Of a DNA stretch of 64,000 nucleotides, positions 28,646 to 43,798 are shown piece by piece. Position 1 is the stretch's first letter, and every line of letters starts with the position of its first letter. This DNA is from Candidatus Magasanikbacteria bacterium GW2011_GWA2_56_11 (GTDB lineage: Bacteria; Patescibacteriota; Patescibacteriia; Magasanikbacterales; UBA922), in contig LCRX01000014.1 of the NCBI GenBank assembly GCA_001004885.1, positions 1,565 through 65,564 of the forward strand, in the 5' to 3' direction. The translations under genes and the position numbers were made by a program. The notes under the pieces were generated by a model. It saw only the letters and a program-made list of their open reading frames with translations. It was not told where the DNA came from and ran no database searches.

Positions 28646-28754
28646 ACTAGGATTACCGCTAACCTCCGCGCCGCCATCCCGCCCCGGCATATGCGCTGCT
28701 GGCGCAGAAGACTGGTATAACACTTCTGGCAGATAAACGCGGTACGGCTGCCGT

Positions 28755-29039
28755 TCAAACGGAGCGGCAAGATTTTAATTTTCTGATTAACGAGCTGGCC
28801 AACCAACCGACTCCGTATAGCAGCGCAGCGTTTATTGCGATCGATAAAACATAGGAAACCGGATTGATGCCCGTGCCTACATTGAGAAAAAATATCCAGG
28901 GCGCGGCAGGTATAATAATCTCGATTCCGCACGACCAATCCCCCCGGGGGCAGTCCTCTAGTAAGCCATAGATACCAAGACCGATAGTTATCGTTAAATA
29001 CAATCCTACGAGGACTGGGCCGATTTTTGTTTTCTTCAT
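28755..29039 (-). CDS. small membrane protein (cassette ORF)
   Basis: 94 aa, hydrophobic. Confidence 0.35.
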   Translation of the reverse strand: MKKTKIGPVLVGLYLTITIGLGIYGLLEDCPRGDWSCGIEIIIPAAPWIFFLNVGTGINPVSYVLSIAINAALLYGVGWLASSLIRKLKSCRSV

Positions 29040-29115
29040 ATAACCGGATAAAAAACGCCAGACAAAAATCTTAACCTTTTTGTCCGCCTTAATTACCTAA
29101 AAAATATCAACCATT

Positions 29116-30249
29116 TTATTTTCGTTCAGGATATATCCGATATTCCAGGCAATGATACTCATTGCCGCCCAGACCTTTTTCGTCATACTCAGTTTCAATT
29201 TTTCCGCCTAGCGACTCAGGAATTTTTCGGCTGGAAATATTTTTATCAGCTACGGGATACAAAAGATAATCGTAATCCAAATTTTCGTCCGCCCACTTTT
29301 TAACTGCGACCATTGCTTCTTTGCCATAACCTTTCCCGTGCGCTGATTTTTTTATCCAAACGCCCATTTCTGGAGTTTTTCCATCAACATGGTGTAGGCC
29401 GGCACAGCCGAAAAATTCCTGAGAGTCTTTTGCGACAATTACAAGTTGAAGATTGCTACCTTCGTTCAAACCTTTTAGAGAATTTTCTATAAATACCTCA
29501 ATTCCCGAAATATCTTTGGCCGGAGCTTCATACATGAAAGTTGTTATTTCTGGTGAAAATTCTCTAAAAATTTCATCCCTATACCGCATTGATATTGGCA
29601 CGAGCAAAAGACGTTCGCTTTCTATGCGCTCTGCCAGTAATCCTTGTTCATTTTTCATAATTGGTTTTTCCATGATAAGAAAAACTCTGGACAATTTAAT
29701 TTCATCTTTGTCCGCTTTTTCTTTTAACAAGAGTATCGCCAACGCTGATCCCATGGCCACAATTTTATTTTTTAAAGCCATTTCAACAGCTCTATCGTAA
29801 TCCACTAAAATTACGTCAATGTCTTCTGGTACATAATCGCCGGAGTCATTTTTTTGATCGAGCTTGGATATGTCTTTGCTGAAAAATAAATGTATTTTAC
29901 GGTTAAGTTGACCGTATGTTTCATAAAAAACGCCGAGTTTTGTTAAAGAATTGCATGTATATCCTGTTTCCTCCTCAAATTCTCTCTTTGCGCCCTCCTC
30001 TATGGTCTCGGCGCTTTGATTATATCCTGAAGGAAATTCTATAACCTCATCATCAACCATATAACGGTACTGCTTGATCATGACAAGCTTTTTATCCTCA
30101 GTCATACCCACAACCATGGCTGAATCTGGACTATCCCAATAAGTCCATTCCCTTTTTTCGCCGTTGGGAAGCTCTACTATGTCCTGCCTTACTTTAAAGT
30201 ACTTAGAATCTAAGGCAAGTTTTGATTGTAGACATTTCCATTTTTTCAT
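29116..30249 (-). CDS. NUDIX hydrolase - GNAT N-acetyltransferase fusion protein
   Basis: N-terminal Nudix box GYNQSAETIEEGAKREFEEETGY. C-terminal RimJ/RimL-like GNAT (QLVIVAKDSQEFFGCAGLHHVD...GKGYGKEAM). Confidence 0.6.
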   Translation of the reverse strand: MKKWKCLQSKLALDSKYFKVRQDIVELPNGEKREWTYWDSPDSAMVVGMTEDKKLVMIKQYRYMVDDEVIEFPSGYNQSAETIEEGAKREFEEETGYTCNSLTKLGVFYETYGQLNRKIHLFFSKDISKLDQKNDSGDYVPEDIDVILVDYDRAVEMALKNKIVAMGSALAILLLKEKADKDEIKLSRVFLIMEKPIMKNEQGLLAERIESERLLLVPISMRYRDEIFREFSPEITTFMYEAPAKDISGIEVFIENSLKGLNEGSNLQLVIVAKDSQEFFGCAGLHHVDGKTPEMGVWIKKSAHGKGYGKEAMVAVKKWADENLDYDYLLYPVADKNISSRKIPESLGGKIETEYDEKGLGGNEYHCLEYRIYPERK

Positions 30250-30442
30250 AATTAATTTTATCGTTTTGGCGGGTCGCAAGAGGGGGGCGAAGGTGACGAA
30301 TCGCGGCCTGCCAAAACACCTACTTCAGTTTCCTTATTAGAGCAGTCGGTCGCGCGCATTTTTTTGTCTTCAGCAGGCATTTTCAACTGTTCCCAAAATG
30401 GGAACGGCTGTGATAACGCCGTGTCCCGTTCCTTCATTTTTG

Positions 30443-30589
30443 CCCAGTAAGTTTTTGGTTGTGGCTATCAGTTAAAACACCAACGATATCCAAAATTGAA
30501 AACCACCATTCTTTTTTATAAATGATTTTCCTTATTTCTTTGCCTTTAAACAAGGCAATATGGTGGTTTGGATTTTGAGTGTCTGACAT
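30443..30589 (-). pseudogene. Bro-N/KilA-N-like domain fragment (remnant cassette ORF, under 60 aa)
   Basis: MSDTQNPNHHIALFKGKEIRKIIYKKEWWFSILDIVGVL matches the Bro-N N-terminal pattern; then stop and frameshifted continuation. Confidence 0.3.
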
Positions 30590-30645
30590 AGTGTAATAAT
30601 TTATTAAATATCGGTTCGGCGGGCATTCTATTCGTATTTGGATTA

Positions 30646-31053
30646 CTAATTTTCTTCGTAAAAAACTTCCAATCTCAAACCATCGGGATCGTGAAAGAAA
30701 ACCGCGTAATACAATTCATCTCCGTAGTCCGGGTAATGTCTTGGTTTTCCGTCAGTATTGGCTTTCATTTTAGTGAGAAGTTTGTATAAATCATCCACAA
30801 TTTTCTTTTTCCCCACGGCCATACCAAGGTGATGAAAACCGACCCTATAATGGTCAAACTTGTCAGCAAAATACTCTTTGTGCCCTTGAAAAATAGCTAA
30901 AAAATACGGAAAGTTTTTTGATTGATAATAAACATGCTGTTTATTTGCGAACGCGATAGTAAAACCGAGGGAGCCAAGCACTTTATCATACCAAAGTTTA
31001 GACTTTCTCAAGTTTTTTACGGTAAGAACGAAATGACTTCTTTTTTCAATCAT
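30646..31053 (-). CDS. VOC family protein (glyoxalase/bleomycin-resistance fold)
   Basis: 135 aa; HHLGMAV...DPDGLRLEVF pattern. Confidence 0.55.
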   Translation of the reverse strand: MIEKRSHFVLTVKNLRKSKLWYDKVLGSLGFTIAFANKQHVYYQSKNFPYFLAIFQGHKEYFADKFDHYRVGFHHLGMAVGKKKIVDDLYKLLTKMKANTDGKPRHYPDYGDELYYAVFFHDPDGLRLEVFYEEN

Positions 31054-31084: not shown

Positions 31085-31143
31085 GCGCCTAACGTCCGTG
31101 CATATGCGCGATGTTTCAATATCGTATATACGCTGTTAGGCGC
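31085..31143 (-). repeat. attC-like recombination site (59 bp)
   Basis: GCGCCTAAC ... GTTAGGCGC perfect inverse cores; begins 12 bp after the cupin stop codon. Confidence 0.6.
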
Positions 31144-31154
31144 GGTTTCGCCGA

Positions 31155-31514
31155 TCACAGCACCTCCTCGTCCTCCTTGTGCCACGCCGGATCGACAATA
31201 CAGAGGAACACAAGATCGGTCTTTCCTGAGTTGCGAATATACTGTTGTGTGTTTGGCGGGATATACACGGCCTGGCCCGGACAAACTTTTTTCGACTCCT
31301 CGCCGATCTGCATGACCCCTTCGCCTTCGAGAATGTAATAGACTTCTGACGTCTTCAACTTATGCGGATAAGAGGTTTTTCCCGGCTTGACTACTGCGTG
31401 CGCCAGACTGTAGCGGAGTTCAAGATCGTCTTTCTCCGGATGCAAGAGTTCGCGCAGGATTGTATTGTCTCCGGCGATGAACTCTTCACAATCTTTTAGA
31501 TCTTTGATAAACAT
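31155..31514 (-). CDS. cupin domain protein
   Basis: 119 aa, conserved cupin Gly/His pattern. Confidence 0.55.
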   Translation of the reverse strand: MFIKDLKDCEEFIAGDNTILRELLHPEKDDLELRYSLAHAVVKPGKTSYPHKLKTSEVYYILEGEGVMQIGEESKKVCPGQAVYIPPNTQQYIRNSGKTDLVFLCIVDPAWHKEDEEVL

Positions 31515-31528
31515 AGGCGAAACAATTT

Positions 31529-31601
31529 CAGCTAATGTTTGCGCGATATGACGTGCGGAGCATATGGGCGGGTGGCGCGAACCGTGTACACGCTTAGGAC
31601 G
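31529..31601 (-). repeat. attC-like site (degenerate cores)
   Basis: cagctaatgtttgcgcg ... gtgtacacgcttaggacg inverted ends; followed by GNRA hairpin gggcGAAAgccc. Confidence 0.45.
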
Positions 31602-31642
31602 TGATAAGGGCGAAAGCCCCGCAGCGATATCGCCGTACCCGT

Positions 31643-32773
31643 TTATTTCATGAAAATATCAATATATTTTCGATAGACAAATGCGCGGTCGTAGGTTTCT
31701 TTGGCGTCTTTCAATTCAAGAATATCAAGGTTCATAAATCTGTCGATAAGTTTTTGGGATCCAACGCGAGAAAATTTGGTCCACTCCATTATTGTTTTAC
31801 TTGAGACAATCGGCTGAGCATACAATTTTCGTAATACCAAAACACCGCTTGCCGACTCTCTCTTCGCCAGGGATTGAATTTTTGCCATGTCGTTTTCTCG
31901 AAGTTTGGTAATTTGTTTTGATACGGATATTGAATCGTTGGCTGTTTCAATGACGCCATCAAGAAAAAAATCAATCCACGATTCAACCTCGCCAAAATGA
32001 TAATCATGCAGTTTTTGGTAGTAAATTTTTTGATGTTTTTTAAAATATGACGATAAAAATAATACCGGCCGCTCAAGCATGTTGCGGTGGCAAAGAAGCA
32101 TGGTTATCAATAAGCGGCCGGCTCTTCCGTTGCCATCAAGAAACGGGTGTATCGTTTCAAATTGGGCGTGAGTAAGGGCGGCGTGGATTAAGGGAAGAGC
32201 TAATTTTTCGTTGTGTAAGAATTTTTCCAGATCATTCAAAGCCCTGTTCATCTCACTCACTGTCGGCGGGACAAATGAAGCATTATTCGGCGTCGTTCCG
32301 CCAATCCAGTTCTGTGATTTGCGGAATTCGCCCGGATCGGCAAAATGAGTGGCGCGGGCATCAGTCATCAATTGCGCGTGTATTTCGCGGATCAATCGCA
32401 AAGAGAGCGGAAAATCTTTTAGTCGTTCAACACCGTAGTTGAGTGCTTTGATGTAGAACAAAATATCGTCAGCATCAGTTTTTTTAACCGTTACGCCGGC
32501 ATTCATTTCTATCGCATCGGCCATACTGGCCTTAGTGCCCTCAATTTGAGAAGAGGAAGCCGCGTCTTTAGCGACGAACATGGAAAGAAAAAAGTCCACA
32601 TCAGGCAGGGTGTGGGTTATACCGTCCAGTTTACCGATTAAGCGGTCCGCTTCTGCCGCTTTAATCAGTATGGCCTGTGATAATTCGAGCAATCCTTTAG
32701 GGGGGAACGGACGTGGCACAAAGGCGGTAAAACCCTCTGTTTGTTTGACATTTTGACCGATTTCAATTTTCAT
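31643..32773 (-). CDS. Fic family protein (AMPylator) with winged-helix domains
   Basis: Fic motif HPFLDGNGRAGR. Confidence 0.8.
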   Translation of the reverse strand: MKIEIGQNVKQTEGFTAFVPRPFPPKGLLELSQAILIKAAEADRLIGKLDGITHTLPDVDFFLSMFVAKDAASSSQIEGTKASMADAIEMNAGVTVKKTDADDILFYIKALNYGVERLKDFPLSLRLIREIHAQLMTDARATHFADPGEFRKSQNWIGGTTPNNASFVPPTVSEMNRALNDLEKFLHNEKLALPLIHAALTHAQFETIHPFLDGNGRAGRLLITMLLCHRNMLERPVLFLSSYFKKHQKIYYQKLHDYHFGEVESWIDFFLDGVIETANDSISVSKQITKLRENDMAKIQSLAKRESASGVLVLRKLYAQPIVSSKTIMEWTKFSRVGSQKLIDRFMNLDILELKDAKETYDRAFVYRKYIDIFMK

Positions 32774-32805
32774 AGATAGTTTACTAGTTTTTTATGATAT
32801 AAACT

Positions 32806-32834
32806 ATCTTATACCTTAGTTTATATGTTGTCAA
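32806..32834 (-). promoter_or_regulatory. sigma70-like promoter for fic with overlapping 10-bp inverted repeat (possible operator)
   Basis: Minus strand TTGACA, 17 nt, TAAGAT. Inverted repeat agatagttta/taaactatct (32775-32809) overlaps the -10 and TSS. Confidence 0.35.
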
Positions 32835-33045
32835 GAGATGAAAACTAAGTATTTTTTTATTCGCTTAGAAGAGCGAATAATGGCCCTCCGGTTCTTTCTT
32901 TTTTGGCCCAAATGTCAACGCATTCATCTTAACCATTAGCGGCCATTATGCGATAAGGAAATTTTCTTACCTTTTTTAAATGTTCTTCCAGAGTATATCC
33001 AATTAATGAATTGGCGCCGAATGCGTATAGGCTGTGAGCAAAATA

Positions 33046-33660
33046 TCACAAGCAGTAATTAATCAAAAAAATATCCATCTCTTGATTTTTGGCGATATTG
33101 TTTAAAAAATAAGCCAGTTTGAATCTTAAATTGCCATCCCATATAATATTTTCGATTCTGCACTGGCCGAACTCCGACAAGGTTTCAAATGTAAAACTTT
33201 TTGGAATTTTAATAACTACATTAGGCGTAATGTATCGTTTAGTTAGATTAAACATTTCTCGCGTGCTTGGTTGCGTATCATCAATGTTGTTTGCGTGAGT
33301 AGGAGGATTTACCCCTTGCATATTCCATTCGGGGTCAAGTATTGCCACATCAGCTGGCAAGCTTTTTAATAAATCAGGATCGAGCGCATCGCCAACGATG
33401 AAGTTAGTCCTCTCTTCTACCCCATATAATACAGCGTTCTTTTTGGCGTCCTCTATCCTTGATGGAATTATATCAACGCCACATGCGCTTTTTAAATGTT
33501 TTGCTAATTGCACGACAATCATGCCGGTGGCGCAACATAGTTCAACTGCGGTTTTAAATTGCGCTAGACTTTTGGCTATGTGTTCACCCACAAATTCAGG
33601 GCAGCTCATATCATAAGCATCCCGATCGGAGAATATATTTTTTGTGAATTTTTTCTTCAT
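33046..33660 (-). CDS. SAM-dependent methyltransferase, Tgs1/RNA-cap guanine-N2 MTase-like
   Basis: VELCCATGMIVVQLA...GVDI...DAKKNAVLYGV...FIVGDALD pattern. Confidence 0.5.
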   Translation of the reverse strand: MKKKFTKNIFSDRDAYDMSCPEFVGEHIAKSLAQFKTAVELCCATGMIVVQLAKHLKSACGVDIIPSRIEDAKKNAVLYGVEERTNFIVGDALDPDLLKSLPADVAILDPEWNMQGVNPPTHANNIDDTQPSTREMFNLTKRYITPNVVIKIPKSFTFETLSEFGQCRIENIIWDGNLRFKLAYFLNNIAKNQEMDIFLINYCL

Positions 33661-33716
33661 AATTCAAGTACGCGCTTTTTCCTGGACCCCACACACGCTG
33701 TTATACTATGTATCGC

Positions 33717-34337
33717 TCAAACCGTCATCTCTACGGCAAAAAGTTCTTTTCTGCATGTGGTCATAATACCGACATGGCAAGCAGCGACCTTGGTGGCCGT
33801 AAATTTTAACGGCAAGATTTCCTGCCCCGCTGCTTCTTTGGTTCGGATTGTAATGTGCGGATCAAAAGCCTCGAAACTGTGAGACGCTGCGAATTTATTT
33901 ATCCAGTCTGGTTCAGCCACTTCCTCGCCCGTTCTTGAGAAAAGCGATCCTTTCGTGCAGTCATATGAAAAGTATTGTCGAAGCCCGTTCATAAGATTCT
34001 CATGAAGCCGCTGTAATTCAGAGGATTTTCTTGCGCGGACGGCATAGATTTTAGATCCATCGGATTTTTCTGCGTAATATAACTCCGCTAGCTCAACGAG
34101 AATCGGACTAAAGTTTTTTACTATACCTTCGACAATACTTTTCACGGTTTCGAGGCTGTCGTCTTCAATGCCACCCATAGCCAATGACATGTGCGGCAGG
34201 AAATCATCTTTCGCCAGCGGACCCCAAGCCGCATTTCTAGTTGCTGCTTGCTGGTTAATATCAATTATCTTTTCCATTACATCTAGGGGCGGAAGAATGG
34301 CCACATCTATTGCTAACTTTTTAGAGATTGTGTTCAT
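33717..34337 (-). CDS. 2H phosphoesterase superfamily protein (LigT / 2'-5' RNA ligase-like)
   Basis: Two H-x-T/S-x motifs (PHMSLA and PHITIR). Confidence 0.5.
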   Translation of the reverse strand: MNTISKKLAIDVAILPPLDVMEKIIDINQQAATRNAAWGPLAKDDFLPHMSLAMGGIEDDSLETVKSIVEGIVKNFSPILVELAELYYAEKSDGSKIYAVRARKSSELQRLHENLMNGLRQYFSYDCTKGSLFSRTGEEVAEPDWINKFAASHSFEAFDPHITIRTKEAAGQEILPLKFTATKVAACHVGIMTTCRKELFAVEMTV

Positions 34338-34370
34338 AGGATTACGCAGAGAGAGATACTTCGCCTAACG

Positions 34371-34489
34371 TTCGCGCCGATGCAAAGTTGCTGCGCGGTA
34401 CAATTTAACGCGGGGCGCTCTAGCGCGCAACAATTTGGATGAGCACGCCCACAAGGAGCGAACTGCGCATGCGCTGTTGTACGATGACC
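34371..34489 (-). repeat. attC-like site
   Basis: + strand cgcctaacgttcgcg ... cgctgttgtacgatgac. Cassette orientation: TACAAC...cgcgaacGTTAGGCG. Confidence 0.5.
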
Positions 34490-34496
34490 ACTTTTT

Positions 34497-34670
34497 CTAT
34501 TTCTTTTTTAAACCGTTCTTTTGCGCGTAAGCTCGTGCTGCTGCAGCGCTCGAACCGCCAGTATATTTCGGTTTAGTTTTTATACTGGCAGAAACAGTTA
34601 CGCCGTCTGTATCTGTTTCTATAGTTATTGAATTGCCTTTGTTGTCGGAATAAGTTTCGATTTTACCCAT
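34497..34670 (-). CDS. small cassette ORF (57 aa, below ORF-track cutoff)
   Basis: MGKIETYSDNKGNSITIETDTDGVTVSASIKTKPKYTGGSSAAAARAYAQKNGLKKK between two attC-like sites. Confidence 0.25.
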   Translation of the reverse strand: MGKIETYSDNKGNSITIETDTDGVTVSASIKTKPKYTGGSSAAAARAYAQKNGLKKK

Positions 34671-34717
34671 ATTGTCTAGATTAAAAGTGATTTAAGTGAT
34701 ATAGAAAAAGTGGCTTT

Positions 34718-34915
34718 CGCGCAACGTTCGTGTGTATGTGAAGTTTTCATCCCGTTTTAACGGAATTACTTTAATTATCAAACACACCTTTTTTAATAAA
34801 CTCCACCCAAATCCTCATCCCTTAAACAGAGAGGATTTAGGTGGAGGAAAATTGGCGCTCTTTAAGGATTTAATTAACGCCAATTTTCCGTGGCCAGATA
34901 TGCGTTGTTATGTCC
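34718..34915 (-). repeat. attC-like site (long, ~200 bp, with 16-bp internal hairpin)
   Basis: cgcgcaacgttcgtgtgtatg ... gatatgcgttgttatgtcc ends. Internal stem ctccacccaaatcctc/gaggatttaggtggag. Confidence 0.45.
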
Positions 34916-34945
34916 TGTAAAAAAAATTTTGCCAAGCTTTTTCTG

Positions 34946-35197
34946 TTATTCTTCAGTGTTTACTCCTACTCCATCATAATATGGCTCATCATCGGCATTG
35001 CAAGATACAAAATTAAGTTCTATACCTCCTTCAAATTTAATAGTAACACCCCCTGAATTATCGAGTTCAAATCCCACTACTACTTTCCCCATTAAAGTCC
35101 CGAGCCGCTTTTCTAATCTCCTCGCGGGTGTATCTTTCTCAACTACCTCCTCAACTACCTCGACTTTTGATATTTCCCTAGGATTTCCTTCAGACAT
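34946..35197 (-). CDS. small acidic hypothetical protein (cassette ORF)
   Basis: 83 aa. Confidence 0.35.
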   Translation of the reverse strand: MSEGNPREISKVEVVEEVVEKDTPARRLEKRLGTLMGKVVVGFELDNSGGVTIKFEGGIELNFVSCNADDEPYYDGVGVNTEE

Positions 35198-35233
35198 ACA
35201 TTAATTATTTAATGATTAAAAATTTTTATTATG

Positions 35234-35340
35234 GCGTATAACGTCGTGTGCATGCGATATGGCACAATGATATATTTTACTCATCATTGTGCCATATGGG
35301 CGAGGCTTCAGCCGAGTCGCATGCACGCTATTATGTGATG
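35234..35340 (-). repeat. attC-like site
   Basis: gcgtataacgtcgtgtgcatgcg ... gcatgcacgctattatgtg ends; central 11-bp hairpin tggcacaatga/tcattgtgcca. Confidence 0.5.
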
Positions 35341-35345
35341 TCGCG

Positions 35346-36041
35346 CTAATTTTTCTGCTCTTTAAAAGAGATATCCTTCATTAAAGTATCAAGTCCATCG
35401 GCCTTGCTGTAACTTACAACCGCTTGGAGGTGATAATCGCCAAATGCATTCGGTACAAAATATTCCAGTCGACTGATTTGCCCCTGGTCAAACATTTTCT
35501 CGAAATAGTCTGTTTTTACACGCAATGCATTTTTGCCATTCACGCTTACTTTTTGCGCGGTGGCATTTTTATTTTCGTAACCAAGCGCCTTTATTATTTC
35601 AGATTCTGACTGGTTAAAGTTAATGCATTCAAAACAAGTAGTGCTGTAATCTGCTGCTGCCGGAGCAAAATCTTTCGTTTCCCACCAAAGTTGCGGCGTT
35701 GATGGAGCATTATCAACGCTTGTATATTTTTCATTTGCAAAGCCAATTTTAAATAGCTTTCCTATGCCGTCTTTGTGTGTCTCATCTGTAAATTTTGGTG
35801 TGCCCCACGAATTGTTATAACAGAAAGAAAGATTTTGCGATTCATACATTGTCCAGTTTTGGGGACATTCTACTTTTGTTTCTGTGCGCTCGACTGTCTT
35901 TTCACTTACAACTCGTGTTGAGGTAATGTCGGGTGCTGTCTCAGCATTTCTATTTTGCCAAAGAAAAATGCCACCGCCTACAACGACGACTGTAACTATA
36001 ACAGCAAGGCCGATTGTCCATGGATTAGTTTTGTACTCCAT
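35346..36041 (-). CDS. membrane-anchored/secreted hypothetical protein (cassette ORF)
   Basis: 231 aa, N-terminal TM, Cys-containing extracytoplasmic domain. Confidence 0.45.
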   Translation of the reverse strand: MEYKTNPWTIGLAVIVTVVVVGGGIFLWQNRNAETAPDITSTRVVSEKTVERTETKVECPQNWTMYESQNLSFCYNNSWGTPKFTDETHKDGIGKLFKIGFANEKYTSVDNAPSTPQLWWETKDFAPAAADYSTTCFECINFNQSESEIIKALGYENKNATAQKVSVNGKNALRVKTDYFEKMFDQGQISRLEYFVPNAFGDYHLQAVVSYSKADGLDTLMKDISFKEQKN

Positions 36042-36100
36042 AATGTTTTGGTTAAGAATTAAACCTACTTTAATGTAAAAGAAAAATTAGCGCAATTTCG

Positions 36101-36163
36101 CATAACCTTCGCGTCTCATCTACTGTAGAGCGCTTGCGGAATGGCGGGTAGACGCTGTTATGT
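36101..36163 (-). repeat. attC-like site (~63 bp)
   Basis: Cassette orientation: (stop)TAACagcgtc ... gagacgcgaagGTTATGCG. The Nudix stop codon lies inside the R''-like core. Confidence 0.5.
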
Positions 36164-36682
36164 GATGTGCATCCCGGAGCCAACATTATTTGAAAAATAG
36201 TCAACACATTCTTTGGTAGATTTTAGAAAAATATCAGGAAAATCAGCTAATTTCTTAAGTAACTCCTCTCTAGAGAACCATTTTATTTGTTCGACTTCTT
36301 CCTTTTGGATTGTAAACTCATGAATATCTTTATCTAACAAGGCAAAATACCACTGTACAAAATGTTTATGTTTACCGTCATTCATTTTATAAAACGCCTT
36401 TTCGAAGTGACAGTTATTTAAACCAATTTCTTCCTCGGCCTCCTTAATGATATTTGATTCATAGGTTTCTCCCTGGTCAATGGTCCCTGCAACGGCAGGC
36501 CCCCATTTTCCGGGGTCATGCTTTTTGTTGAATGATCGTTGGGCTAGGAGGGTGTCACCTTTAGAATTCTGAATCCATAAGGCCGAGACGCGATAGATGT
36601 CTTCTGGTTTCAAAGTTCCTCGCTCTTTCAATCCAATGACGCTATCCTTTTCATCGACAATTATAATTTTTGCCTTACTCAT
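36158..36682 (-). CDS. NUDIX hydrolase
   Basis: Nudix box GTIDQGETYESNIIKEAEEEIGL. Confidence 0.6.
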   Translation of the reverse strand: MSKAKIIIVDEKDSVIGLKERGTLKPEDIYRVSALWIQNSKGDTLLAQRSFNKKHDPGKWGPAVAGTIDQGETYESNIIKEAEEEIGLNNCHFEKAFYKMNDGKHKHFVQWYFALLDKDIHEFTIQKEEVEQIKWFSREELLKKLADFPDIFLKSTKECVDYFSNNVGSGMHIT

Positions 36683-36731
36683 ATTCGTTTACAATTCAAT
36701 GCTTTCTTGCGAAAAGCTCCGGGCAGCATAT

Positions 36732-36861
36732 CACATAACGTTCGCGCGTATCGATGTTCACTGGCTGTATAATATCGCGAAGCGGTACAGCCAGCAAATA
36801 TGGGCGGAGGCTTGCGGAGGAACGGAGCAAGCCGTAGCCGCATACACGCTGTTAGCTGATG
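36732..36861 (-). repeat. attC-like site
   Basis: Cassette orientation: catcAGCTAACagcgtgtatg ... catcgatacgcgcgaacGTTATGTG; central 8-bp hairpin. Confidence 0.5.
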
Positions 36862-36904
36862 TAAATAAATTCAATGAGCGAAGCGAATATTATTCAGACA
36901 AATT

Positions 36905-37513
36905 TTAAAAAAATCCCAAGAGATTGAAAAACAATCTAACAGAAAAAATGATAATCACTAACGATGCCAGGAAATTGAAACTAGCGATTATTTTTTTGTT
37001 GCCGGTTTTATTGATCGCTGAACCTAGATAGACGACTACAACGAAACAAAGAAATGATCCGATTGACAAAGATAGTGAGTTAGCTATGATTGTTTGAAAG
37101 ATATGCTCTTTTATGTTTAGAAAGGAAGTTGCGACTCCAATAAAATAAACATAAGTAAGAGGAGATAGCGCACAGAGAACCATTCCATTTAGAAAGGATT
37201 GTTTTTCAATCGGGTTGTCACTATTACTTAACTTTCCAAGACTTTTTAGAAAACCTGTTATTCCAACGAATAACATATAGCCGACGCCGACCATTCCGAT
37301 ACCATAATACAGCCAAGGAATTTTTATAAATTGACTGATTCCAAAGTAGCTCAATACAAGAATAATAAAGTTCATTGTCGCTACACCAGATGCCAAAACA
37401 ATCCCTTGGCGTTTTTTACCAAGAAGCGAAGTTTGTAATACTGTTGTTTGAATCACACCTGGGGAGGCGGCGGCGCTAAAACCGATTATAAAGCTTGAAA
37501 GTAATAGTGACAT
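36905..37513 (-). CDS. LysE/RhtB family amino-acid exporter
   Basis: 202 aa, 6 TM helices, LysE-type N-terminal pattern. Confidence 0.6.
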   Translation of the reverse strand: MSLLLSSFIIGFSAAASPGVIQTTVLQTSLLGKKRQGIVLASGVATMNFIILVLSYFGISQFIKIPWLYYGIGMVGVGYMLFVGITGFLKSLGKLSNSDNPIEKQSFLNGMVLCALSPLTYVYFIGVATSFLNIKEHIFQTIIANSLSLSIGSFLCFVVVVYLGSAINKTGNKKIIASFNFLASLVIIIFSVRLFFNLLGFF

Positions 37514-37570
37514 TTTTTAAAATTTGTCTGAATAATTTTTCGGCCACAGCCGAAAAGAATTTATTTATTT

Positions 37571-37673
37571 CAGCTAACGTTTCGGCATATCTGATGTTTG
37601 CCGTAGCGTAGCGGAGGCAAATATGGGTGGAGGCTTTTGTAAAAAGCCGTAACCAGATATGCCGAACATCTCA
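37571..37673 (-). repeat. attC-like site
   Basis: cagctaacgtttcggcatatctg ... cagatatgccgaacatc inverted arms; the HNH stop codon abuts the site. Confidence 0.5.
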
Positions 37674-38264
37674 ATCAATACCTTCAGTTTTTAACAGTGC
37701 TTTAACGCATAACGAGTATTCTTTGTCTTCTTCTGCCTCTGGTTTTATGCTTTCTAATACTGCTTCTTTTGCACTATCTTCTAGCTTTGCACATGCTCCA
37801 ATAACTTTTTTGAGCAAATTGATTCTATCTTGTCGTCTTTCAATTAAAGCTGGGCGGTTTAGGTGCACGCCGCTTTGCTCTTCAATGGTAATTTTTCCTT
37901 TTGTTGAATTATCCTTATGTGCAAAGAAAGCTCCCAATACGACTATATGTGTTTCGGGGTCTTCATCGTATGGATTAAGGATTGGATTTGCTTCATCATA
38001 TTTGTCAGATTTATAGCCGTTGCAACGTGCACAGACGTATCCTAAATTTCCCCAATCAAATTCTAAGCCTGGGAATTTTGACTTTGGCTTTATGTGTTCA
38101 ATGTCACCGTAGTAAGTATGGGATACTTTGCTTTCGCAATACATGCATTTATCATGACTGGCCAAGATGAGAACCGCCTTGTTGTCAGGGTGTTTATAAT
38201 TTGTTCTCAATGCCTCTTGATTTGGGCATTGTGGTCTACTTAGTTTGATCATTTGAATTTTCAA
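37671..38264 (-). CDS. HNH endonuclease (PtuB-like)
   Basis: CMYCESK...GDIEHIKPKS...CARCNGYK HNH/zinc motif; overlaps the ATPase gene by 29 bp. Confidence 0.6.
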   Translation of the reverse strand: MKIQMIKLSRPQCPNQEALRTNYKHPDNKAVLILASHDKCMYCESKVSHTYYGDIEHIKPKSKFPGLEFDWGNLGYVCARCNGYKSDKYDEANPILNPYDEDPETHIVVLGAFFAHKDNSTKGKITIEEQSGVHLNRPALIERRQDRINLLKKVIGACAKLEDSAKEAVLESIKPEAEEDKEYSLCVKALLKTEGID

Positions 38265-39480
38265 TTAAGCTGTAAACGGCTTCGGGCATGATTTTCTCTA
38301 GTCCCATTTCCTTTAACTCATTGCGCATTTGAGTAAATTTTTCTTTGGTAATGCTTTCTTTCGAGTATTTTGCGACTATCTCATTCAACTTATCTTCTAC
38401 CCATATTGGCATTGTAAAGGCCACGCCCAAAACTTCATCCAATATTTCCGCCGCTGTCTTTGCTTTATTTATGAAGTCTAGTCGTTCACTGACAATTTTA
38501 TTGTTTTCGTTATATCTCAAGGCGTATACATTTGATTCTTTAACTGAACCAACAATGAGCGGATTATGAGTAGAGACGATAAAGCGTGTATTTGGAAACG
38601 CCCCAAGGAAGTCTGGCAATATTTGCCGTTGCATTGTCGGATGAAGATGATTTTCAACTTCATCTATTAAAACAGTAAAATTGGGATTATCTTTTTCCTC
38701 TGTGGCATAAAAATAAATTTGCCAAGCAAGGTCTATTATTGCGCTTATTCCACCAGATGAAGCATCAATAACAAACTCACCTGATGTACAAATCAGTAGA
38801 ACCTCTGAGTTTCGTATAGCAAATTTTTGAAAACCTAAAGTTTTGGGCAGTACTTTTTTAAGTACCTCTTGAAAACCATTGTAATATTCGAGAAGGGTTT
38901 CATTCGCATCCATATCTTTGTTGCCTTGGCCAAAAATACTCCAGCAAATGAGAGCTTCTTTTATATGAAAACTACTTGGAACGTCATTTCCGCCACCATA
39001 TCTACTTTTGTTACTATTCCAAACTTTATCGAAAGCCTGTTTTTTGTTGATTGTATTTGCGGTTGGAATTTGAGTTACTTTTTGGTATCTGAATATTGAT
39101 CTATGTGAGGGGATGAAAAAGCACTTTACTCCTTGTTGCCCCTCGATTTGCATGTTGTATTGTGCCTCGTTTTGTTCTTTTGGCACCTTCAATATAGCTT
39201 TTTGTCCATCACTATAATTTAATTCACCTTTAGTATCTTTTGGCTCCTCATCTTCCACCCAAAAGGAAGAGAACCATTTCCAAACCTTGGTTTTTATGTC
39301 CTTTTTTGGAGTTGCTAAGGATTTTGCATCCCAACCGCAATGTCTTGCTAAAAGATGCAACAGAGTTGTTTTACCACTTGCATTTGCGCCTGTTAAAATA
39401 GTCAACCGATCATGGAAATCTATTTCGATATTTTCAAATTGTTGCCACTCCGCTGTAATTTTTAATTTTTTGAAATCCAT
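38236..39480 (-). CDS. AAA_21/ABC-type ATPase (PtuA/OLD-like)
   Basis: Walker A GANASGKTT. Walker B VLIDEVENHLHP. STHNP motif. Confidence 0.65.
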   Translation of the reverse strand: MDFKKLKITAEWQQFENIEIDFHDRLTILTGANASGKTTLLHLLARHCGWDAKSLATPKKDIKTKVWKWFSSFWVEDEEPKDTKGELNYSDGQKAILKVPKEQNEAQYNMQIEGQQGVKCFFIPSHRSIFRYQKVTQIPTANTINKKQAFDKVWNSNKSRYGGGNDVPSSFHIKEALICWSIFGQGNKDMDANETLLEYYNGFQEVLKKVLPKTLGFQKFAIRNSEVLLICTSGEFVIDASSGGISAIIDLAWQIYFYATEEKDNPNFTVLIDEVENHLHPTMQRQILPDFLGAFPNTRFIVSTHNPLIVGSVKESNVYALRYNENNKIVSERLDFINKAKTAAEILDEVLGVAFTMPIWVEDKLNEIVAKYSKESITKEKFTQMRNELKEMGLEKIMPEAVYSLIENSNDQTK

Positions 39481-39501
39481 AGATTGATCCTACTGCAAAA
39501 C

Positions 39502-40440
39502 CTATTTTTTAAATTCTCTGAAGTACTTGCCGAATACTTTCTGGAACAAAACTGTTTTTTCATAAAGCCAAGCAAAATATTTTTCTGCTTCGGCTTGGTC
39601 AAATACGCCTGAAACTTCCTTTTTAATTTTTATACGGGAGGCGACGGCCGCATCCACCCATTCGATAGACTCGCCAATTTCTTTTTCAATTTCTGCTTTT
39701 CGTTCGCGTAAAAAAATAAATAAGTCTTTATTTCTGCTGATATAAATCTCACAGCCAATCAAGTTTTCACGAGAGTTAATAGTTAGTGCTACATGGCCGT
39801 CTGAACTGCCCATGCTAACATCGTACCAATGTTGAGGGCGAGGAGTTTGTAGTCGGATTTGGGTGTCGTTTTCTCGTACATAATTTTTGAATTTGTTCCA
39901 AAATTCAAGCTGTTGCAATTTTGTATCAGTTAGCTCGCCATTTGATGGACTTGTCTTAATTGCCTTTGCCCATTCATTTGGACTAACCATAATCTCAAAT
40001 TTTGGCGCAGGATTCGAGCCTTCTATTTGCCAAAGTTCAATTTTTATCAAAAAGAAACCGATATTTTCATCTGTATGTTCGTTAAGCCAATCGATCGCTT
40101 TTTGATGTTCATCGCGTACATCTTTAACAATCCAAATAATTATTTCCGCATCGTATCCCGACGCATAAGTAATAATTTTTCCTAAATGATCGTGGTTGGT
40201 ATCTTCGAGCTGATTTTCGATTATAATCTTTCTCCCTGACGCTTCTTCTTCGGCGAGGATATCAACGCTAAATTTTCCCACGCTCGCTTCGGTTTTGATA
40301 AGTTTTATATCAACGCCTATTTCTTCACTCAAGGCATCAAGATTTTCTTGCTGTGCGAGCCAGTTAGTAAAATCAATGGCTTCGTGACTCCAGACATCGC
40401 GTAGTTCAACTTTATTTAGTTTAGATAGTGATTTTTTCAT
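39502..40440 (-). CDS. DUF4268-like protein with possible PD-(D/E)xK nuclease core
   Basis: 312 aa; VDILAEEE...IIIENQL motif; 21 bp upstream of the ATPase gene with no attC between them. Confidence 0.45.
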   Translation of the reverse strand: MKKSLSKLNKVELRDVWSHEAIDFTNWLAQQENLDALSEEIGVDIKLIKTEASVGKFSVDILAEEEASGRKIIIENQLEDTNHDHLGKIITYASGYDAEIIIWIVKDVRDEHQKAIDWLNEHTDENIGFFLIKIELWQIEGSNPAPKFEIMVSPNEWAKAIKTSPSNGELTDTKLQQLEFWNKFKNYVRENDTQIRLQTPRPQHWYDVSMGSSDGHVALTINSRENLIGCEIYISRNKDLFIFLRERKAEIEKEIGESIEWVDAAVASRIKIKKEVSGVFDQAEAEKYFAWLYEKTVLFQKVFGKYFREFKK

Positions 40441-40607
40441 AGTGTAAATTTACTTACTGTTATTGTATTCGTTTTCCCCTTATAAATAAATCGTTTTCGG
40501 AGCAAAGCGGAGAAAACACCTTATATCCCCTTTAAAAATAAAGAAAAAGAAATTTGAAAATTTTTTAAAACAATTGGGCGATAGCCCAAAAAAGAAAAGG
40601 AATATTT

Positions 40608-40750
40608 CAGCTAATGTTCGCGTGTATGAGAAGTTTCGCCGACTTCCTTACTCTTAATTATAGAGGAGGCGAAATTTGGGTGAAAGAAAAAGTGCAGCCG
40701 CTGAAAAATATTAACGCACTTTTTCTTAAACCTCATACACCCTGTTAGGC
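40608..40750 (-). repeat. attC-like site (~143 bp) after the first cassette
   Basis: Cassette orientation: (stop TAA inside) GCCTAACagggtgtatgag ... ctcatacacgcgaacATTAGCTG. Confidence 0.55.
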
Positions 40751-41080
40751 GATGTATTCTTTTTCTTTGTTATCATCTTTATTTTTATTTTTTTCATCAT
40801 AGTACTCATAATTTTTCTTATTGCCCCAAACTCTAAATTTGGCAACCATAAAACCACTGATGATAAGTGCCACTCCTATTTTCCAGTTTATAAAGAGAAA
40901 AATTAATCCTGCGATTACTAATTCTCCAGTAATCACGCTTAATAGAGGATTTGGTCCCAAAGGAAAAACGTGCAATAGCGTGCCAATGATGAAAAGCACT
41001 ATTGATACTTGCCAGTTGAAAAAAATAAAAACGATTGCGGCGATTGCCATCAGATACTTTATTGCGTTTAGAATTTTCAT
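40745..41080 (-). CDS. small membrane protein (first cassette after attI-like site)
   Basis: 111 aa, 3 TM helices, Lys/Asp-rich tail; stop codon inside GCCTAAC. Confidence 0.4.
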   Translation of the reverse strand: MKILNAIKYLMAIAAIVFIFFNWQVSIVLFIIGTLLHVFPLGPNPLLSVITGELVIAGLIFLFINWKIGVALIISGFMVAKFRVWGNKKNYEYYDEKNKNKDDNKEKEYIA

Positions 41081-41104
41081 AATTTTATCTTAAAAGAAAA
41101 AGAA

Positions 41105-41131
41105 TATTTCACCTAACTGGCCGTTATAACC
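41105..41131 (-). other. attI-like site (GTTAGGT core) between cassette 1 and the recombinase gene
   Basis: Minus strand GTTATAACggccaGTTAGGTgaaatatt. The gaaat(a/t) motif after the core is shared with the R' ends of attC sites at 40608 and 37571. Confidence 0.4.
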
Positions 41132-41206
41132 AATGTTTTTTAATTAACAGCCAAAATTTGTATGATAAACGAATAGATGCTAGGCTTAGGTTACTTTTCA
41201 AAAAAC

Positions 41207-42019
41207 ATGGCAAACCTAATCGAAATTCTAACACGAGAGATAAAATTGCGCAATTACAGCCCAAAAACGCTGGCGGCCTATGTTTTTGTTGTCAGGGACA
41301 TCTATGCCTTTCACCAGCGGCCGCCAAAGGAACTCACAACTGAAGATATAAAGGACTACCTCCTGGCCAAGCAAAAAAAAGGCCTGTCAAGCCAGACCGT
41401 CGCCCTTTATGCCAACGCGCTCAACTTTCTCTATGGCGAGGTGTACAAACGCCCCAACTTTGTCCGGATTAAACACCCCAAACGGTCCTCACGGCTCCCG
41501 GTGGTGCTGCGCCGGGACGAAATCGAGCGATTGTTGGCTGTCATCAAAAATATTAAGCACCGAACGCTGGTGGCGCTGGCCTATGGCGCCGGACTCCGAG
41601 TGGGCGAGGCGGTGCGTCTCAGGGTCGCGGACATTGACCTTGACGAGCTCACGATAACCGTGCGCCAAGGAAAGGGTAAAAAAGACAGGCTGACCGTTCT
41701 ATCCGCAAGTCTGACGCCGGACTTGCGTGAATTTATGACTGGCAAAACTGGCCAAGCGTATATTTTCGGCAGCGAACGGGGCGGCCGTTTAACCGAAGCC
41801 ACCGCGCAAAAAGTATTCGTCCGCGCGCTCCAAAAAGCCGGCGTTGTAAAGCCGGCCACCTTCCATTCGCTGCGCCACTCCTTCGCCACTCACCTCTTGG
41901 AAAACGGCGTGGACGTGCGCTATGTGCAAGAGCTATTGGGACACGCCAATATCCGCACCACGCAAATTTATACCAAAGTAACGAATCCAAGGCTCAAAAA
42001 TATCAAAAGCCCCCTATGA
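41207..42019 (+). CDS. tyrosine site-specific recombinase, XerC/XerD-like (candidate cassette integrase; lacks IntI additional domain)
   Basis: R...K...HSLRHSFATHLL...LLGHANIRTTQIYTKV catalytic motifs. ~42 aa between K-box and HxxR (XerD length, not IntI). 4-bp ATGA overlap with elp3. Confidence 0.8.
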   Translation: MANLIEILTREIKLRNYSPKTLAAYVFVVRDIYAFHQRPPKELTTEDIKDYLLAKQKKGLSSQTVALYANALNFLYGEVYKRPNFVRIKHPKRSSRLPVVLRRDEIERLLAVIKNIKHRTLVALAYGAGLRVGEAVRLRVADIDLDELTITVRQGKGKKDRLTVLSASLTPDLREFMTGKTGQAYIFGSERGGRLTEATAQKVFVRALQKAGVVKPATFHSLRHSFATHLLENGVDVRYVQELLGHANIRTTQIYTKVTNPRLKNIKSPL

Positions 42020-43680
42020 CCCCGGCCGAACAAATCTTGACGGCCGTCATGGCCACGCGTCCGACCACCAAAACCCAATTTGACCAAGCCCGGGCGGGTA
42101 TTTGCGGCCAGCTCAAAATTCAGCAGATGCCGAATCGCGAACTTTTGGAAGCCTACCGGCGCCTGGTCAAAAAGAAAAAGATTGTCGCGGACAAAATCAT
42201 AGAAAATTTTTTGCGTAAAGCCGAAATCCGCAGCCTCTCGGGCATCGCGGTCGTTACCTCGCTCCTCAAGCCCTACGCCTGCCCGGGAGAATGCGTCTAC
42301 TGCCCGACCGAGAAGAGAATGCCCAAGAGCTATATCGCCACCGAGCCGGCCGCGGCGCGAGCGCTCGCCCTCAAATTCAGCCCCTACGAGCAGATGCGCC
42401 AGCGCGTTCTCATGCTCGAAAAAAACGGACACCGGACGGACAAGATTGAGTATATAGTCAAGGGCGGAACGTGGAATGCCTATACCCTCGGTTACCAGTA
42501 CTGGTTTATCCTCGAGTCTTTCCGGGCGGCCAACGAGATACGCCGGCGCAATCCGCCGGCGGCGCAGTACTCCGAGCATACCCCGGTCAGCGAGCTGCAA
42601 GAGGCCTTGGAGCGCGAGCAAAGGCGCAACGAAACCGCCAAGCACCGGATTATCGGGCTCACCCTTGAAACTCGGCCCGACGCCATTTCTCCCCGAACTA
42701 TAGGCCATCTGCGCCGGCAGGGCTGCACGCGGGTAGAGCTCGGACTCCAGGCGCCGGACGACCGGATACTCGCGCTCATTAAACGTGGGCACACCGTGGA
42801 GCAGTTTCGCGCGGCTATGCTTCTTTTGCGCCAGGCCGGATTCAAGGTGGATCTGCATTTCATGCCGGATCTGCCCGGCACTACGCCCGCGCATGATGTC
42901 GAGATGTACGCGTCTCTCTTTAGCGATCCGGGCCTCAAGCCGGACATGGTGAAGATTTATCCGAGCATGGTCGTCAAATCGGCCGAACTTTACCAGTGGT
43001 TCCTCGACGGCCGGTACAAACCGTATGGCGACACGCCGGAGCTGGCCGAGGCGCTGATCAAAATGAAGCTCGCGACCCCGCGCTACTGCCGCCTCTCGCG
43101 GCTCATCCGCGATATCCCGGCCAACGAAATCTCCGGCGGCAACGCGGTAACCAATCTGCGCGAACTTTTGGCCGCGCGCCTCAAAAAAGATAATAAACGC
43201 TGCGTCTGCCTGCGCTGCCGCGAGATCGGCCGGCAGCAGCCCTTATCCCCTCCTGACTCCGCGCCGGAACTCTTTATTGACAAATACAAAACTACCGGCG
43301 GCACCGAATATTTTTTAAGTTTTGAAGACCAAAAACGCACCGCTGTCTTCGGCTTTTTGCGCTTGCGCCTGCCGGACTTGGGCCAAACGGCAGCCGTACC
43401 GGCGCTAAAAAAACTTTATGAGTCGTTGCCGGAGATAAGGCAGGCCGCCTTTATCCGCGAGCTGCACGTCTACGGGCAGCTGGTCGGCATCGGCCAACGC
43501 GACCATAAGTCCAGCCAGCACAAAGGAGTGGGGAAAAAACTCATGGCCGCGGCCGAAAGAATTGCCCGCCGGGGCGGGTACCGGAAAATTGCCGTCATCT
43601 CGGGCGTGGGAGTCCGCGATTATTATCGCCGCCTGGGCTACCGCAAAAGTGGCAGCTACCTGGCAAAAAAACTGGCTTGA
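42016..43680 (+). CDS. elp3: Elp3-like tRNA modification enzyme (radical SAM + GNAT)
   Basis: CPGECVYCP radical SAM cluster. IEYIVKGGTWNAY. C-terminal QHKGVGKKLMAAAERIARRGGYRKIAVISGVGVRDYYRRLGY GNAT domain. Confidence 0.8.
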   Translation: MTPAEQILTAVMATRPTTKTQFDQARAGICGQLKIQQMPNRELLEAYRRLVKKKKIVADKIIENFLRKAEIRSLSGIAVVTSLLKPYACPGECVYCPTEKRMPKSYIATEPAAARALALKFSPYEQMRQRVLMLEKNGHRTDKIEYIVKGGTWNAYTLGYQYWFILESFRAANEIRRRNPPAAQYSEHTPVSELQEALEREQRRNETAKHRIIGLTLETRPDAISPRTIGHLRRQGCTRVELGLQAPDDRILALIKRGHTVEQFRAAMLLLRQAGFKVDLHFMPDLPGTTPAHDVEMYASLFSDPGLKPDMVKIYPSMVVKSAELYQWFLDGRYKPYGDTPELAEALIKMKLATPRYCRLSRLIRDIPANEISGGNAVTNLRELLAARLKKDNKRCVCLRCREIGRQQPLSPPDSAPELFIDKYKTTGGTEYFLSFEDQKRTAVFGFLRLRLPDLGQTAAVPALKKLYESLPEIRQAAFIRELHVYGQLVGIGQRDHKSSQHKGVGKKLMAAAERIARRGGYRKIAVISGVGVRDYYRRLGYRKSGSYLAKKLA

Positions 43681-43798
43681 AAGCGCGCCGATAACCGATT
43701 ACTTCTCCGGTTTCCGTACCGCCCAGTTTATCATTTTTTATTGACAAAAAGCCCCGAACGTGGTTAGCTAGCGCTGTCATGCTAAAGGAGCAAGAAGA

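Follow-up and report, generated by a model that had tools for sequence, protein, structure and literature searches.

A probable integron with attC-type sites and a compact, IntI-like/XerA-like recombinase in a Patescibacteria genome

Contig LCRX01000014.1 of Candidatus Magasanikbacteria bacterium GW2011_GWA2_56_11 (GenBank assembly GCA_001004885.1) was analyzed over a stretch of 64,000 nucleotides (nt), referred to here as the window. It contains an island of foreign base composition, in which an array of genes with a GC content of 39.5% (vs 57% in the flanks and the genome) has every cassette open reading frame (ORF) on the - strand. Nine inter-gene elements of 55-195 nt, all in one orientation, and one half-site (E3) are distributed over positions 31085-40750, and the array starts at an attI-like core next to the gene of a tyrosine recombinase that is transcribed divergently from it (Table 1). 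One site was found per boundary, at the 3' end of the cassette; the exceptions to the one-site-per-gene layout are two multi-gene cassettes, the half-site E3 and a distal block free of such sites. Very probably, the elements are attC-type recombination sites, without extrahelical bases, of an integron that uses a compact integrase. The island probably comprises ~11 cassettes of a sedentary chromosomal integron in a genome of the Patescibacteria (candidate phyla radiation, CPR) close to Magasanikbacteria, a placement with which the relatives of its RarA (Magasanikbacteria/Patescibacteria) agree. Direct observations underlie this reading in the case of the site architecture, the covariation, the complementarity of the cassette ends, a base composition foreign to the genome, and a linkage and orientation of the sites, relative to one recombinase family, that are conserved.

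On the + strand each element takes the form xxCTAAC-GTTC-GCGTGTATG ... CATACACGC-T-GTTAGxx, which is the complement of the string that an earlier note on this DNA had written in cassette orientation. That note had proposed that four boxes, R''-L''-variable-L'-R', make up an attC; the boxes are present where it had placed them, and the structural tests described below bear the proposal out. The lengths it had listed agree with those measured here, from 7-mer to 7-mer, once 2-nt flanks are added, and every element of its list was recovered, although two more, E3 and the possible relic E0, had been missed. The GAAAT(A/T) extension that it had remarked on is real (repeat families D3 and D8) and proved to be a portion of a longer arm, (A)TTTCnnnTAAC, that recurs at the attI sites of relatives. 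The attI-like junction it had postulated was found beside the divergent tyrosine recombinase, and the range of 55-195 nt excludes the dispersed, REP-like repeat of constant length that it had named as the contrary case.

Weight matrices of the arms, trained on the attC family of the window, gave scores of at least 16 on the + strand within 31085-40752 only, and the background maximum in the other ~50 kb of the window, on both strands, was 14.0 for left arms and 11.3 for right arms. Arms outside the training set were recovered as well (E9-left, 26.9; E3-right, 16.1, with no partner on its left). A structure-aware scan of ~1 Mb (the window and 80 loci) returned 34-36 elements, vs 0 in composition-matched shuffles. 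The decayed site E2 retains a left arm (matrix score 12.2) and the central TATGGGCGG motif, and E0 obtained a covariance-model score of 9.3 bits (E = 7.6) and a right-arm matrix score of 10.7, with no significant fold. Regarding the tools, a full-length MAFFT alignment misplaced the arms and arms-only constructs were used instead; the arm covariance model matched only two short sites, since it was unable to bridge the 60-160-nt centers of the longer ones, and was replaced by paired weight matrices and a stem count. A generic scan for AAC...GTT plus a stem was dropped as noisy; it missed real sites because the R boxes within the array derive from different cassettes.

A single geometry fits 25 sites (six from the window and 19 from 11 other loci), whose arms, each picked independently of its partner, gave a gapless covariation alignment. 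It consists of a 7-bp R helix, an internal loop of 4 nt (GTTY) vs 1 nt (T), and an 11-bp L helix. Overall 87% of the cells are paired (82% in the R helix and 91% in the L helix), double-sided changes are seen in 14 of the 18 pairs, and changes are compensatory in 10 of the 11 pairs of the L stem. None of 500 shuffles matched the observed covariation, and sliding the register cut the pairing to 22-47%. The AAC/GTT core is invariant or nearly so. The mutual complementarity of the boxes, asserted in the earlier note, is thus upheld by compensatory substitutions across aligned sites. Its further statement that the elements match the folded attC recognized by integron integrases is supported, with two qualifications beyond its reach: the partner recombinase is not a canonical IntI, and the folded sites are without the extrahelical bases of classical attC, as the L stem is continuous, with 11 of 11 pairs in most sites. 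The sole conserved asymmetry of the folded sites is the 4-nt vs 1-nt internal loop between the R and L boxes. Most CPR attC centers are composed of hairpin 1, a single-stranded (A/T)ATGGGYGRAG and hairpin 2, the loop of hairpin 1 being often GGTATAAT and its tip often a GCGAAGC-type mini-hairpin; these motifs persist while the stems differ between sites. A promoter-like TTCACC-16-TATAAT lies inside E10 on the - strand.

The R arms are ~11 nt long and Xer-like, (A)TTTCnnnTAAC, and their outer positions are frequently mismatched inside one in-array element, as would be expected of positions that belong to the neighboring cassette. When the 20 nt to the right of GTTA at one site were compared with the 20 nt to the left of TAAC at the following site, 14-17 of the 20 matched, vs 4-9 of 20 when the same right flank was compared with the left flank of its own element. 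The complementary cassette ends, which correspond to the inverted repeats I1, I2, I4, I5, I8, I12 and I24, pair over at least 20 nt, and their meeting point is TAA↓C (arrow); the two ends of a cassette come together only in an excised circle, where the R stem reaches 20-28 bp. Since the flank changes partner at this point, each cassette bears its own long terminal inverted repeat. Under the integron model, a crossover in R' would give rise to just such a switch, the outer bases of R' moving together with the next cassette. In agreement with the circular form, E7 folds at -12.8 kcal/mol (z = -0.1) in the array and at -26.4 kcal/mol (z = -5.5) as a circle, E6 at -29.8 and -40.7 kcal/mol (z = -7.3 for the circle), respectively, and the circular form of E8 at -39.2 kcal/mol (z = -6.8).

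Being intergenic palindromes downstream of ORFs, the elements could also be conceived as repetitive extragenic palindromes (REP) or bacterial interspersed mosaic elements (BIME), as miniature transposable elements or as terminators, none of them with a role in recombination, and E2, E4 and E7, which in the array context fold no better than shuffled sequences, would suit such a view. Nevertheless, their length varies, they are confined to one island and one strand, T-tracts are absent, the change of partner in flank complementarity falls exactly at TAA↓C, and across phyla it is one recombinase family to which the elements are linked. In addition, the attC arm had no match among the viral contigs of IMG/VR and the elements matched no family in Rfam (which contains no attC family). 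An explanation of this kind is extremely improbable.

At the head of the array, 74-101 nt upstream of the recombinase gene, the attI-like core shows two inverted arms about a center of 6-7 nt, and the array joins it at TAA↓C. The layout xTTTCnnnYAAC↓T-N5-6-TATRCGAA is present in at least 23 CPR relatives, 68-157 nt upstream of the start codon, and the attI consensus TTTCnnnTAA-CTnnnn(n)-TTATRCGAA has the two arms of ~11 bp and the center of 6-8 bp that characterize Xer/dif sites. The spacing of the promoter-like element that follows in the window (Table 1) is conserved across relatives (TTGTAT-17 nt-TAnnnT; loci L002, L007, L011, L012, L014 and L015; L numbers designate loci from other genomes). 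The spacer in these relatives holds a conserved GTTATRCGAA, a third copy of the arm motif, whose location suggests that the recombinase may regulate its own gene or bind an accessory site there, as at DR1/DR2 of attI1. Separately, TTGTATRTTATRCGAA upstream of the recombinase was considered as a dif site; it bears a partial resemblance to Escherichia coli dif, and the proposal was dropped because a promoter (-35, 17 nt, -10) with an arm-like motif in its spacer fits better and no GC-skew switch occurs at the locus.

The recombinase contains the Pfam domains Phage_int_SAM_4 and Phage_integrase (155 bits). It reaches 224.1 bits on NF040815 (XerA-type), passing the cut-off of 220, and its best match in the PDB is the integrase of Vibrio cholerae, VchIntIA (2A3V, 169 bits), vs 147 bits for XerA. 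The alignment with VchIntIA leaps over residues 181-241 of IntI4 while the recombinase advances 17 residues, indicating that the IntI-specific domain is absent from it. The catalytic residues R131, H220, R223, H246 and Y255 are invariant in 14 relatives, and the spacing from GKGxKxR to HxLRH is 58-59 residues, vs 60-62 in XerA. In a rough neighbor-joining tree without branch support, the short enzymes and their DPANN relatives were sister to canonical IntI and the characterized XerAs fell outside. Relatives are 65-70% identical across CPR classes, and each relative examined has other genes downstream of the recombinase. In the window, an ELP3-like radical-SAM/GNAT gene (42016-43680) begins 4 nt ahead of the recombinase stop, which suggests that both genes are co-transcribed.

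The arrangement recurs in other genomes. The comparative set was formed by 80 genome loci around recombinase relatives. The attC family of the window adjoins the relatives upstream in ~20 further CPR loci. Where the contigs extend upstream, sites on the same strand were recorded in L011, L013, L014, L016, L019, L020, L021, L023, L038, L046, L081 and L083-L086; in L081, whose integrase is 78% identical to that of the window, there is a single cassette. The sites of relatives fall between called genes of the divergent strand. Some are closely similar to those of the window: E5 is 82% identical across its whole length to a 202-nt attC in L023, and over 99 nt E9 shares 96% identity with an attC in L083. 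Inverted arrangements, with the array downstream and on the opposite strand, occur in the metagenome-assembled genome L040 (Spirochaetia), in the Paenibacillaceae loci L037 and L031, in several Flavobacteriia and in Paenibacillus sp. NFR01; L037, from Saccharibacillus kuerlensis, carries three 100-nt sites after three co-directional ORFs. A metagenome scan of the sort that the earlier note had asked for was seeded with the attC left arm alone and matched at least 120 contigs. In 69 of the 80 that were fetched, a complementary right arm stands at 53-198 nt (106 sites). All six contigs that reach a recombinase encode one of the short family in the expected arrangement, and no IntI of canonical length was found in the 80 attC-seeded loci. 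The fetched relatives from DPANN and Methanosarcinales yielded no attC of the window family.

Assemblies tend to break at this point. A contig end lies <700 nt upstream of the gene in 18 of the 30 best relatives, and within 700 nt downstream in 2; the contigs of three relatives begin exactly at ..TAAC↓T. A different type of repeat was seen upstream of the recombinase in Candidatus Wolfebacteria CP011209 (L017, 7712-9881), where three 191-nt repeats, 95-98% identical, match the attC arm matrices only in part and may represent a longer attC subtype.

Several observations weigh against the assignment of the array to an integron with this recombinase as its integrase. On TIGR02249 (IntI) the protein scores 224.1 bits, under the cut-off of 265, and its match is split in two stretches, whereas the canonical IntIs taken as control (L048 and L069; Lyngbya and Steroidobacteraceae) each match over a single full-length stretch, with 444-464 bits; the range for six other array-linked short enzymes is 184-219 bits. 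Judging from its alignment, the recombinase is without the ~43-residue IntI-specific domain, which the passages of PMC9668308 that cite Messier and Roy (2001) describe as necessary for IntI activity. Its conservation resembles that of RarA and would fit a housekeeping Xer role too. The + (bottom) strand of the sites folds better than its complement by only 1.8-2.7 kcal/mol, which makes the strand assignment weak. Several sites are decayed (E0, E2, E3 and the R'' of E9), so that part of the array may be frozen. A near-identical strain is represented by L087 (ENA ERZ28563792), which corresponds to window positions 40572-51340 in two pieces (99.1% identity over 40572-48519 and 95.3% over 48600-51340) and stops 37 nt past the first attC, within the repeated leader described below; it has the same first cassette, and between these two strains (99.1% identical) no turnover was seen. 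Finally, the window covers 64 kb of the genome, and a canonical IntI acting in trans is possible.

A rival reading takes the array as a cluster of attC sites without an integron-integrase (CALIN) that happens to stand beside the housekeeping Xer of the host, the true integrase being a canonical IntI located elsewhere or lost. The score of the recombinase lies above the cut-off of the XerA-type model and below that of the IntI model, the protein is conserved like a core gene, and the window holds no second tyrosine recombinase, so that another one would have to be encoded in the remainder of the genome. A fortuitous neighborhood does not account for the recurrence of adjacency, distance and orientation in ~20 independent loci with differing downstream genes, nor for the same arrangement in the recombinase-bearing contigs reached from the attC side, all without a canonical-length IntI; moreover, the array always ends at a conserved core with arms like the R arms of attC. 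For these reasons the CALIN explanation is considered unlikely.

Another possibility is that the recombinase is the chromosome-dimer resolvase, the attI-like core its dif site, and the cassettes are elements resembling integrative mobile elements exploiting Xer (IMEX) stacked at dif, comparable to the CTX phage with its single-stranded hairpin attP. The core is indeed dif-like, with two inverted arms of ~10 nt and a center of 6-7 nt, it adjoins the recombinase gene as the sites of XerS/difSL and XerH/difH likewise do, and NCBIfam classes the protein as XerA-like. DPANN relatives, in which perfect palindromic cores accompany the gene, point in the same direction. The sign of the GC skew, however, is the same on both sides of the core (-0.045 and -0.068 in the window; also in the 10-kb flanks of L011, L013, L017, L038 and L046), and therefore attI coincides with neither a skew switch nor the terminus; in CP011209, a complete Wolfebacteria genome of 984 kb, the locus lies at 108-129 kb. 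Furthermore, the cassettes are promoter-poor and single-gene, with hairpins of variable length, as is the pattern in integrons. Taken together, a dif site with stacked elements is a very unlikely explanation. As to the DPANN relatives themselves, L033 (~2700-2740) and L077 (~9860-9900) show near-perfect palindromic cores beside the gene, e.g., TGCGTATAA-GGTACA-TTATACGCA; these use the arm consensus of CPR attI and could be dif sites or empty attI sites.

Returning to an integron with a compact integrase, a mechanism can be proposed in which the recombinase would bind the folded single-stranded attC and a double-stranded, Xer-like attI core beside its own promoter. It would read arms of ~10-11 nt (consensus TTTCGnATAA), two of them inverted at attI and a third overlapping its own promoter-like element. 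In the folded attC the R arms would be the equivalents of these arms and the L stem would replace the second arm. The distance from TAA to the TATG-like core of L is ~7 nt on the R''/L'' side (8 in attI) and ~10 nt on the R'/L' side, which results in a 3-nt bulge, and this bulge could stand in for the extrahelical bases as a strand marker. The choice of strand might arise from the 3-nt loop asymmetry together with T.G and TxT mismatches conserved within the R arm, and not from extrahelical bases of the kind that the absent domain reads. By exchange at TAA↓C, circular cassettes would be integrated at attI, excised between neighboring sites and shuffled. By analogy with the chemistry of IntI and Xer, we infer these strand-exchange steps, as well as catalysis by the 270-aa recombinase, the single-stranded state of the substrate, the precise point of cleavage and the strand that reacts.

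Table 1. Features of the cassette array and its surroundings (window positions unless a locus is named; E, attC-type element).
Feature	Position	Strand	Remarks
Tyrosine recombinase, compact IntI-like/XerA-like	41207-42019	+	270 aa (amino acids); divergent from array; GC 53%
Promoter-like element	41158-41186	+	TTGTAT-17 nt-TAGGCT, upstream of recombinase; putative function
attI-like core	41106-41133	.	ATTTCACCTAA / C TGGCCG / TTATAACCAA; C = 41117
Cassette 1 ORF	40745-41080	-	111 aa membrane protein; no Pfam hit; TAA stop within R'' box
attC E10	40609-40750	-	142 nt; fold z = -5.5; after cassette 1
Cassette 2	37671-40606	-	three genes + leader
Conserved leader (cassette 2)	40441-40606	-	~165 nt
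PDC-S11/DUF4268 (cassette 2)	39502-40440	-	PADLOC 401 bits
Septu PtuA (cassette 2)	38236-39480	-	PADLOC 574 bits
Septu PtuB (cassette 2)	37671-38264	-	PADLOC 220 bits
attC E9	37572-37668	-	97 nt; R'' degenerate; fold z = -5.0
Cassette 3 ORF	36905-37513	-	LysE-type exporter
attC E8	36733-36857	-	125 nt
Cassette 4 ORF	36158-36682	-	NUDIX hydrolase
attC E7	36100-36163	-	64 nt; covariance model 30.5 bits
Cassette 5 ORF	35346-36041	-	231 aa; N-terminal transmembrane segment; no family hit
attC E6	35236-35336	-	101 nt; fold z = -5.5
Cassette 6 ORF	34946-35197	-	83 aa; no family assigned
attC E5	34719-34913	-	195 nt
Cassette 7 ORF	34497-34670	-	57 aa; no family assigned
attC E4	34363-34482	-	120 nt
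Cassette 8 ORF	33717-34337	-	2'-5' RNA ligase superfamily
E3, truncated attC	~33661-33706	-	R''/L'' half kept, L'/R' half absent; no significant fold
Cassette 9	31643-33660	-	methyltransferase 33046-33660; SoFic-type Fic protein 31643-32773 (351 bits)
attC E2	31530-31600	-	71 nt, decayed; R'' and L stem weak/degenerate; fold z = +1.8
Cassette 10 ORF	31155-31514	-	cupin
attC E1	31087-31141	-	55 nt, shortest; fold z = -2.9; covariance model 49.3 bits
Distal low-GC block	28755-31053	-	VOC/glyoxalase, 51-aa ORF, NUDIX-GNAT fusion, 94-aa membrane protein
E0, possible relic terminal attC	28657-28704	-	73% GC; at composition boundary of island
attC center examples	36775-36830 (E8); 37595-37650 (E9); 40650-40700 (E10)
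Leader copies	L014 4207-4362 and 95-253; L083 7793-7964

With regard to the cargo, no attC was found between the methyltransferase and SoFic genes of cassette 9, and none was recognizable between the four co-oriented ORFs of the distal block. No whole cassette of the window was present at high identity in any fetched locus; what is shared are attC sites, one leader and two gene fragments. This leader of ~150-165 nt, at the start of cassette 2, has counterparts in L014 (91% identity) and L083 (87%). All copies adjoin the R' end of an attC and precede differing defense-type genes. In the window these are PDC-S11/Septu; in L014 the gene, judged from its sequence, is for a putative DNA methyltransferase, and L083 has a type IIG restriction enzyme. 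Two hairpins, the terminator-like TTGGGCTATCGCCCAA and GGTGTTTTCTCCGC..CTCCGAAAACGAT, are present in the leader, which had no match in Rfam and may be a portable promoter/regulatory module for defense cassettes. A hairpin ATCGTTTTGGCGGG...CCTGCCAAAACACC at 30258-30310, immediately upstream of the NUDIX-GNAT ORF, has a ATCGTTTT...AAAACACC frame in common with the hairpin of the cassette 2 leader.

Just past the possible relic E0, on the opposite strand, lies a gene for a DUF5676 protein with two transmembrane segments (28394-28645, +; 51% GC). A homolog with 65% aa identity is an ordinary cassette gene in L084, and the gene of the window may be a cassette that was turned around or left stranded. 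A perfect palindrome with 22-nt arms, CGAGAATAAAAAGAATCCCGA...TCGGGATTCTTTTTATTCTCG (15509-15555), is found where the window is GC-rich and looks like a bidirectional terminator.

Integron integrases are defined by the IntI-specific domain, and IntegronFinder detects them by it (PMC9668308, PMC9024848). If attC arrays are consistently wired to a recombinase without it, the domain would not be required for the integron lifestyle and current surveys would miss a whole branch. It is evenly balanced whether such a large, unrecognized branch of integrons exists, with integrases of ~270 aa that form a sister group of canonical IntI and in which the IntI-specific domain was either lost or never present, an Xer-type core attI and attC without extrahelical bases. 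Such a branch would be nearly universal in CPR/Patescibacteria and would also occur in Paenibacillaceae, Flavobacteriia and Spirochaetia. If so, the range of integrons would take in the CPR, which make up a very large part of bacterial diversity, and the Firmicutes, from which complete integrons were reported to be almost absent (PMC9024848). In permafrost metagenomes, 97% of the contigs with "integron-type" recombinases were without a recognized attC (PMC13323075). The proposed branch would offer a possible explanation of these attC-less recombinases and of the shortage of archaeal IntIs (PMC9668308), and many "integrase-less" attC clusters could have their missing partner in it. It may also preserve an intermediate between gene-adjacent Xer sites and classical integrons.

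For the biology of the host lineage, the Septu, PDC-S11 and SoFic genes imply that the array would also be a bank of defense genes in an episymbiont lineage, and the junction of attI and array is a recurrent break point of CPR genome assemblies. Cultured carriers are available in Saccharibacillus kuerlensis DSM 22868, Paenibacillus sp. NFR01 and several Flavobacteriaceae. As integrons and attC sites are already well known, the system constitutes a variant and not a categorically new one. Neither attC arrays tied to integrases without the IntI domain nor integrons in CPR were found described in the literature consulted, of partial coverage, on integrons or attC in CPR, Patescibacteria or DPANN, or with XerA.

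Among known systems, the superintegron of V. cholerae (with attC sites of the Vibrio cholerae repeat, VCR, type and VchIntIA) is alike in its divergent integrase gene and attI at the head of the array, in its cassettes, which share one orientation, hold mostly a single gene and are each followed by an imperfectly palindromic site R''-L''...L'-R' with a conserved AAC/GTT core, in the relatedness of the sites within the array, and in cassettes of foreign composition that include defense cargo; its integrase is also the best solved-structure match of the window recombinase. The window differs in an integrase of 270 aa that is without the IntI-specific domain (~181-241 of IntI4) and fails TIGR02249, and in sites with a fully paired L stem, a 4x1 loop, R arms of ~11 nt and cassette ends that pair over 20-28 nt. 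The inverted arrays of L040, L037/L031 and the Flavobacteriia loci resemble the inverted-integrase integrons of the Treponema denticola type; the recombinases of these loci are also of 270 aa and without the insertion, whereas the window has the classical divergent arrangement. In most of the archaeal attC arrays reported by Ghaly et al. (2022; PMC9668308), IntI went undetected: 75 genomes had 539 attC sites and no more than six IntIs, the IntI-specific domain having been demanded for an integrase call. Those arrays are similarly found in uncultured small-genome lineages, and the array-linked enzyme of the window differs in being without that domain.

Compared with archaeal XerA/dif, XerS/difSL and XerH/difH, the recombinase passes the XerA model, its motif spacing is close and a two-arm core lies next to the gene. 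In contrast, the site of the window is not at a GC-skew switch, one arm of its core comes from a mobile cassette, its partners are hairpins of variable length, and in the tree mentioned above, which is rough and without branch support, characterized XerAs stand outside the clade of short enzymes and canonical IntI. The pdif modules of Acinetobacter and IMEX of the CTX-phage type are also moved by Xer-type recombinases, and the substrate of the CTX phage is a folded single-stranded hairpin. While pdif sites are 28-bp duplexes in alternating orientation, the window presents co-oriented hairpins of 55-195 nt in a one-ended array with a dedicated recombinase.

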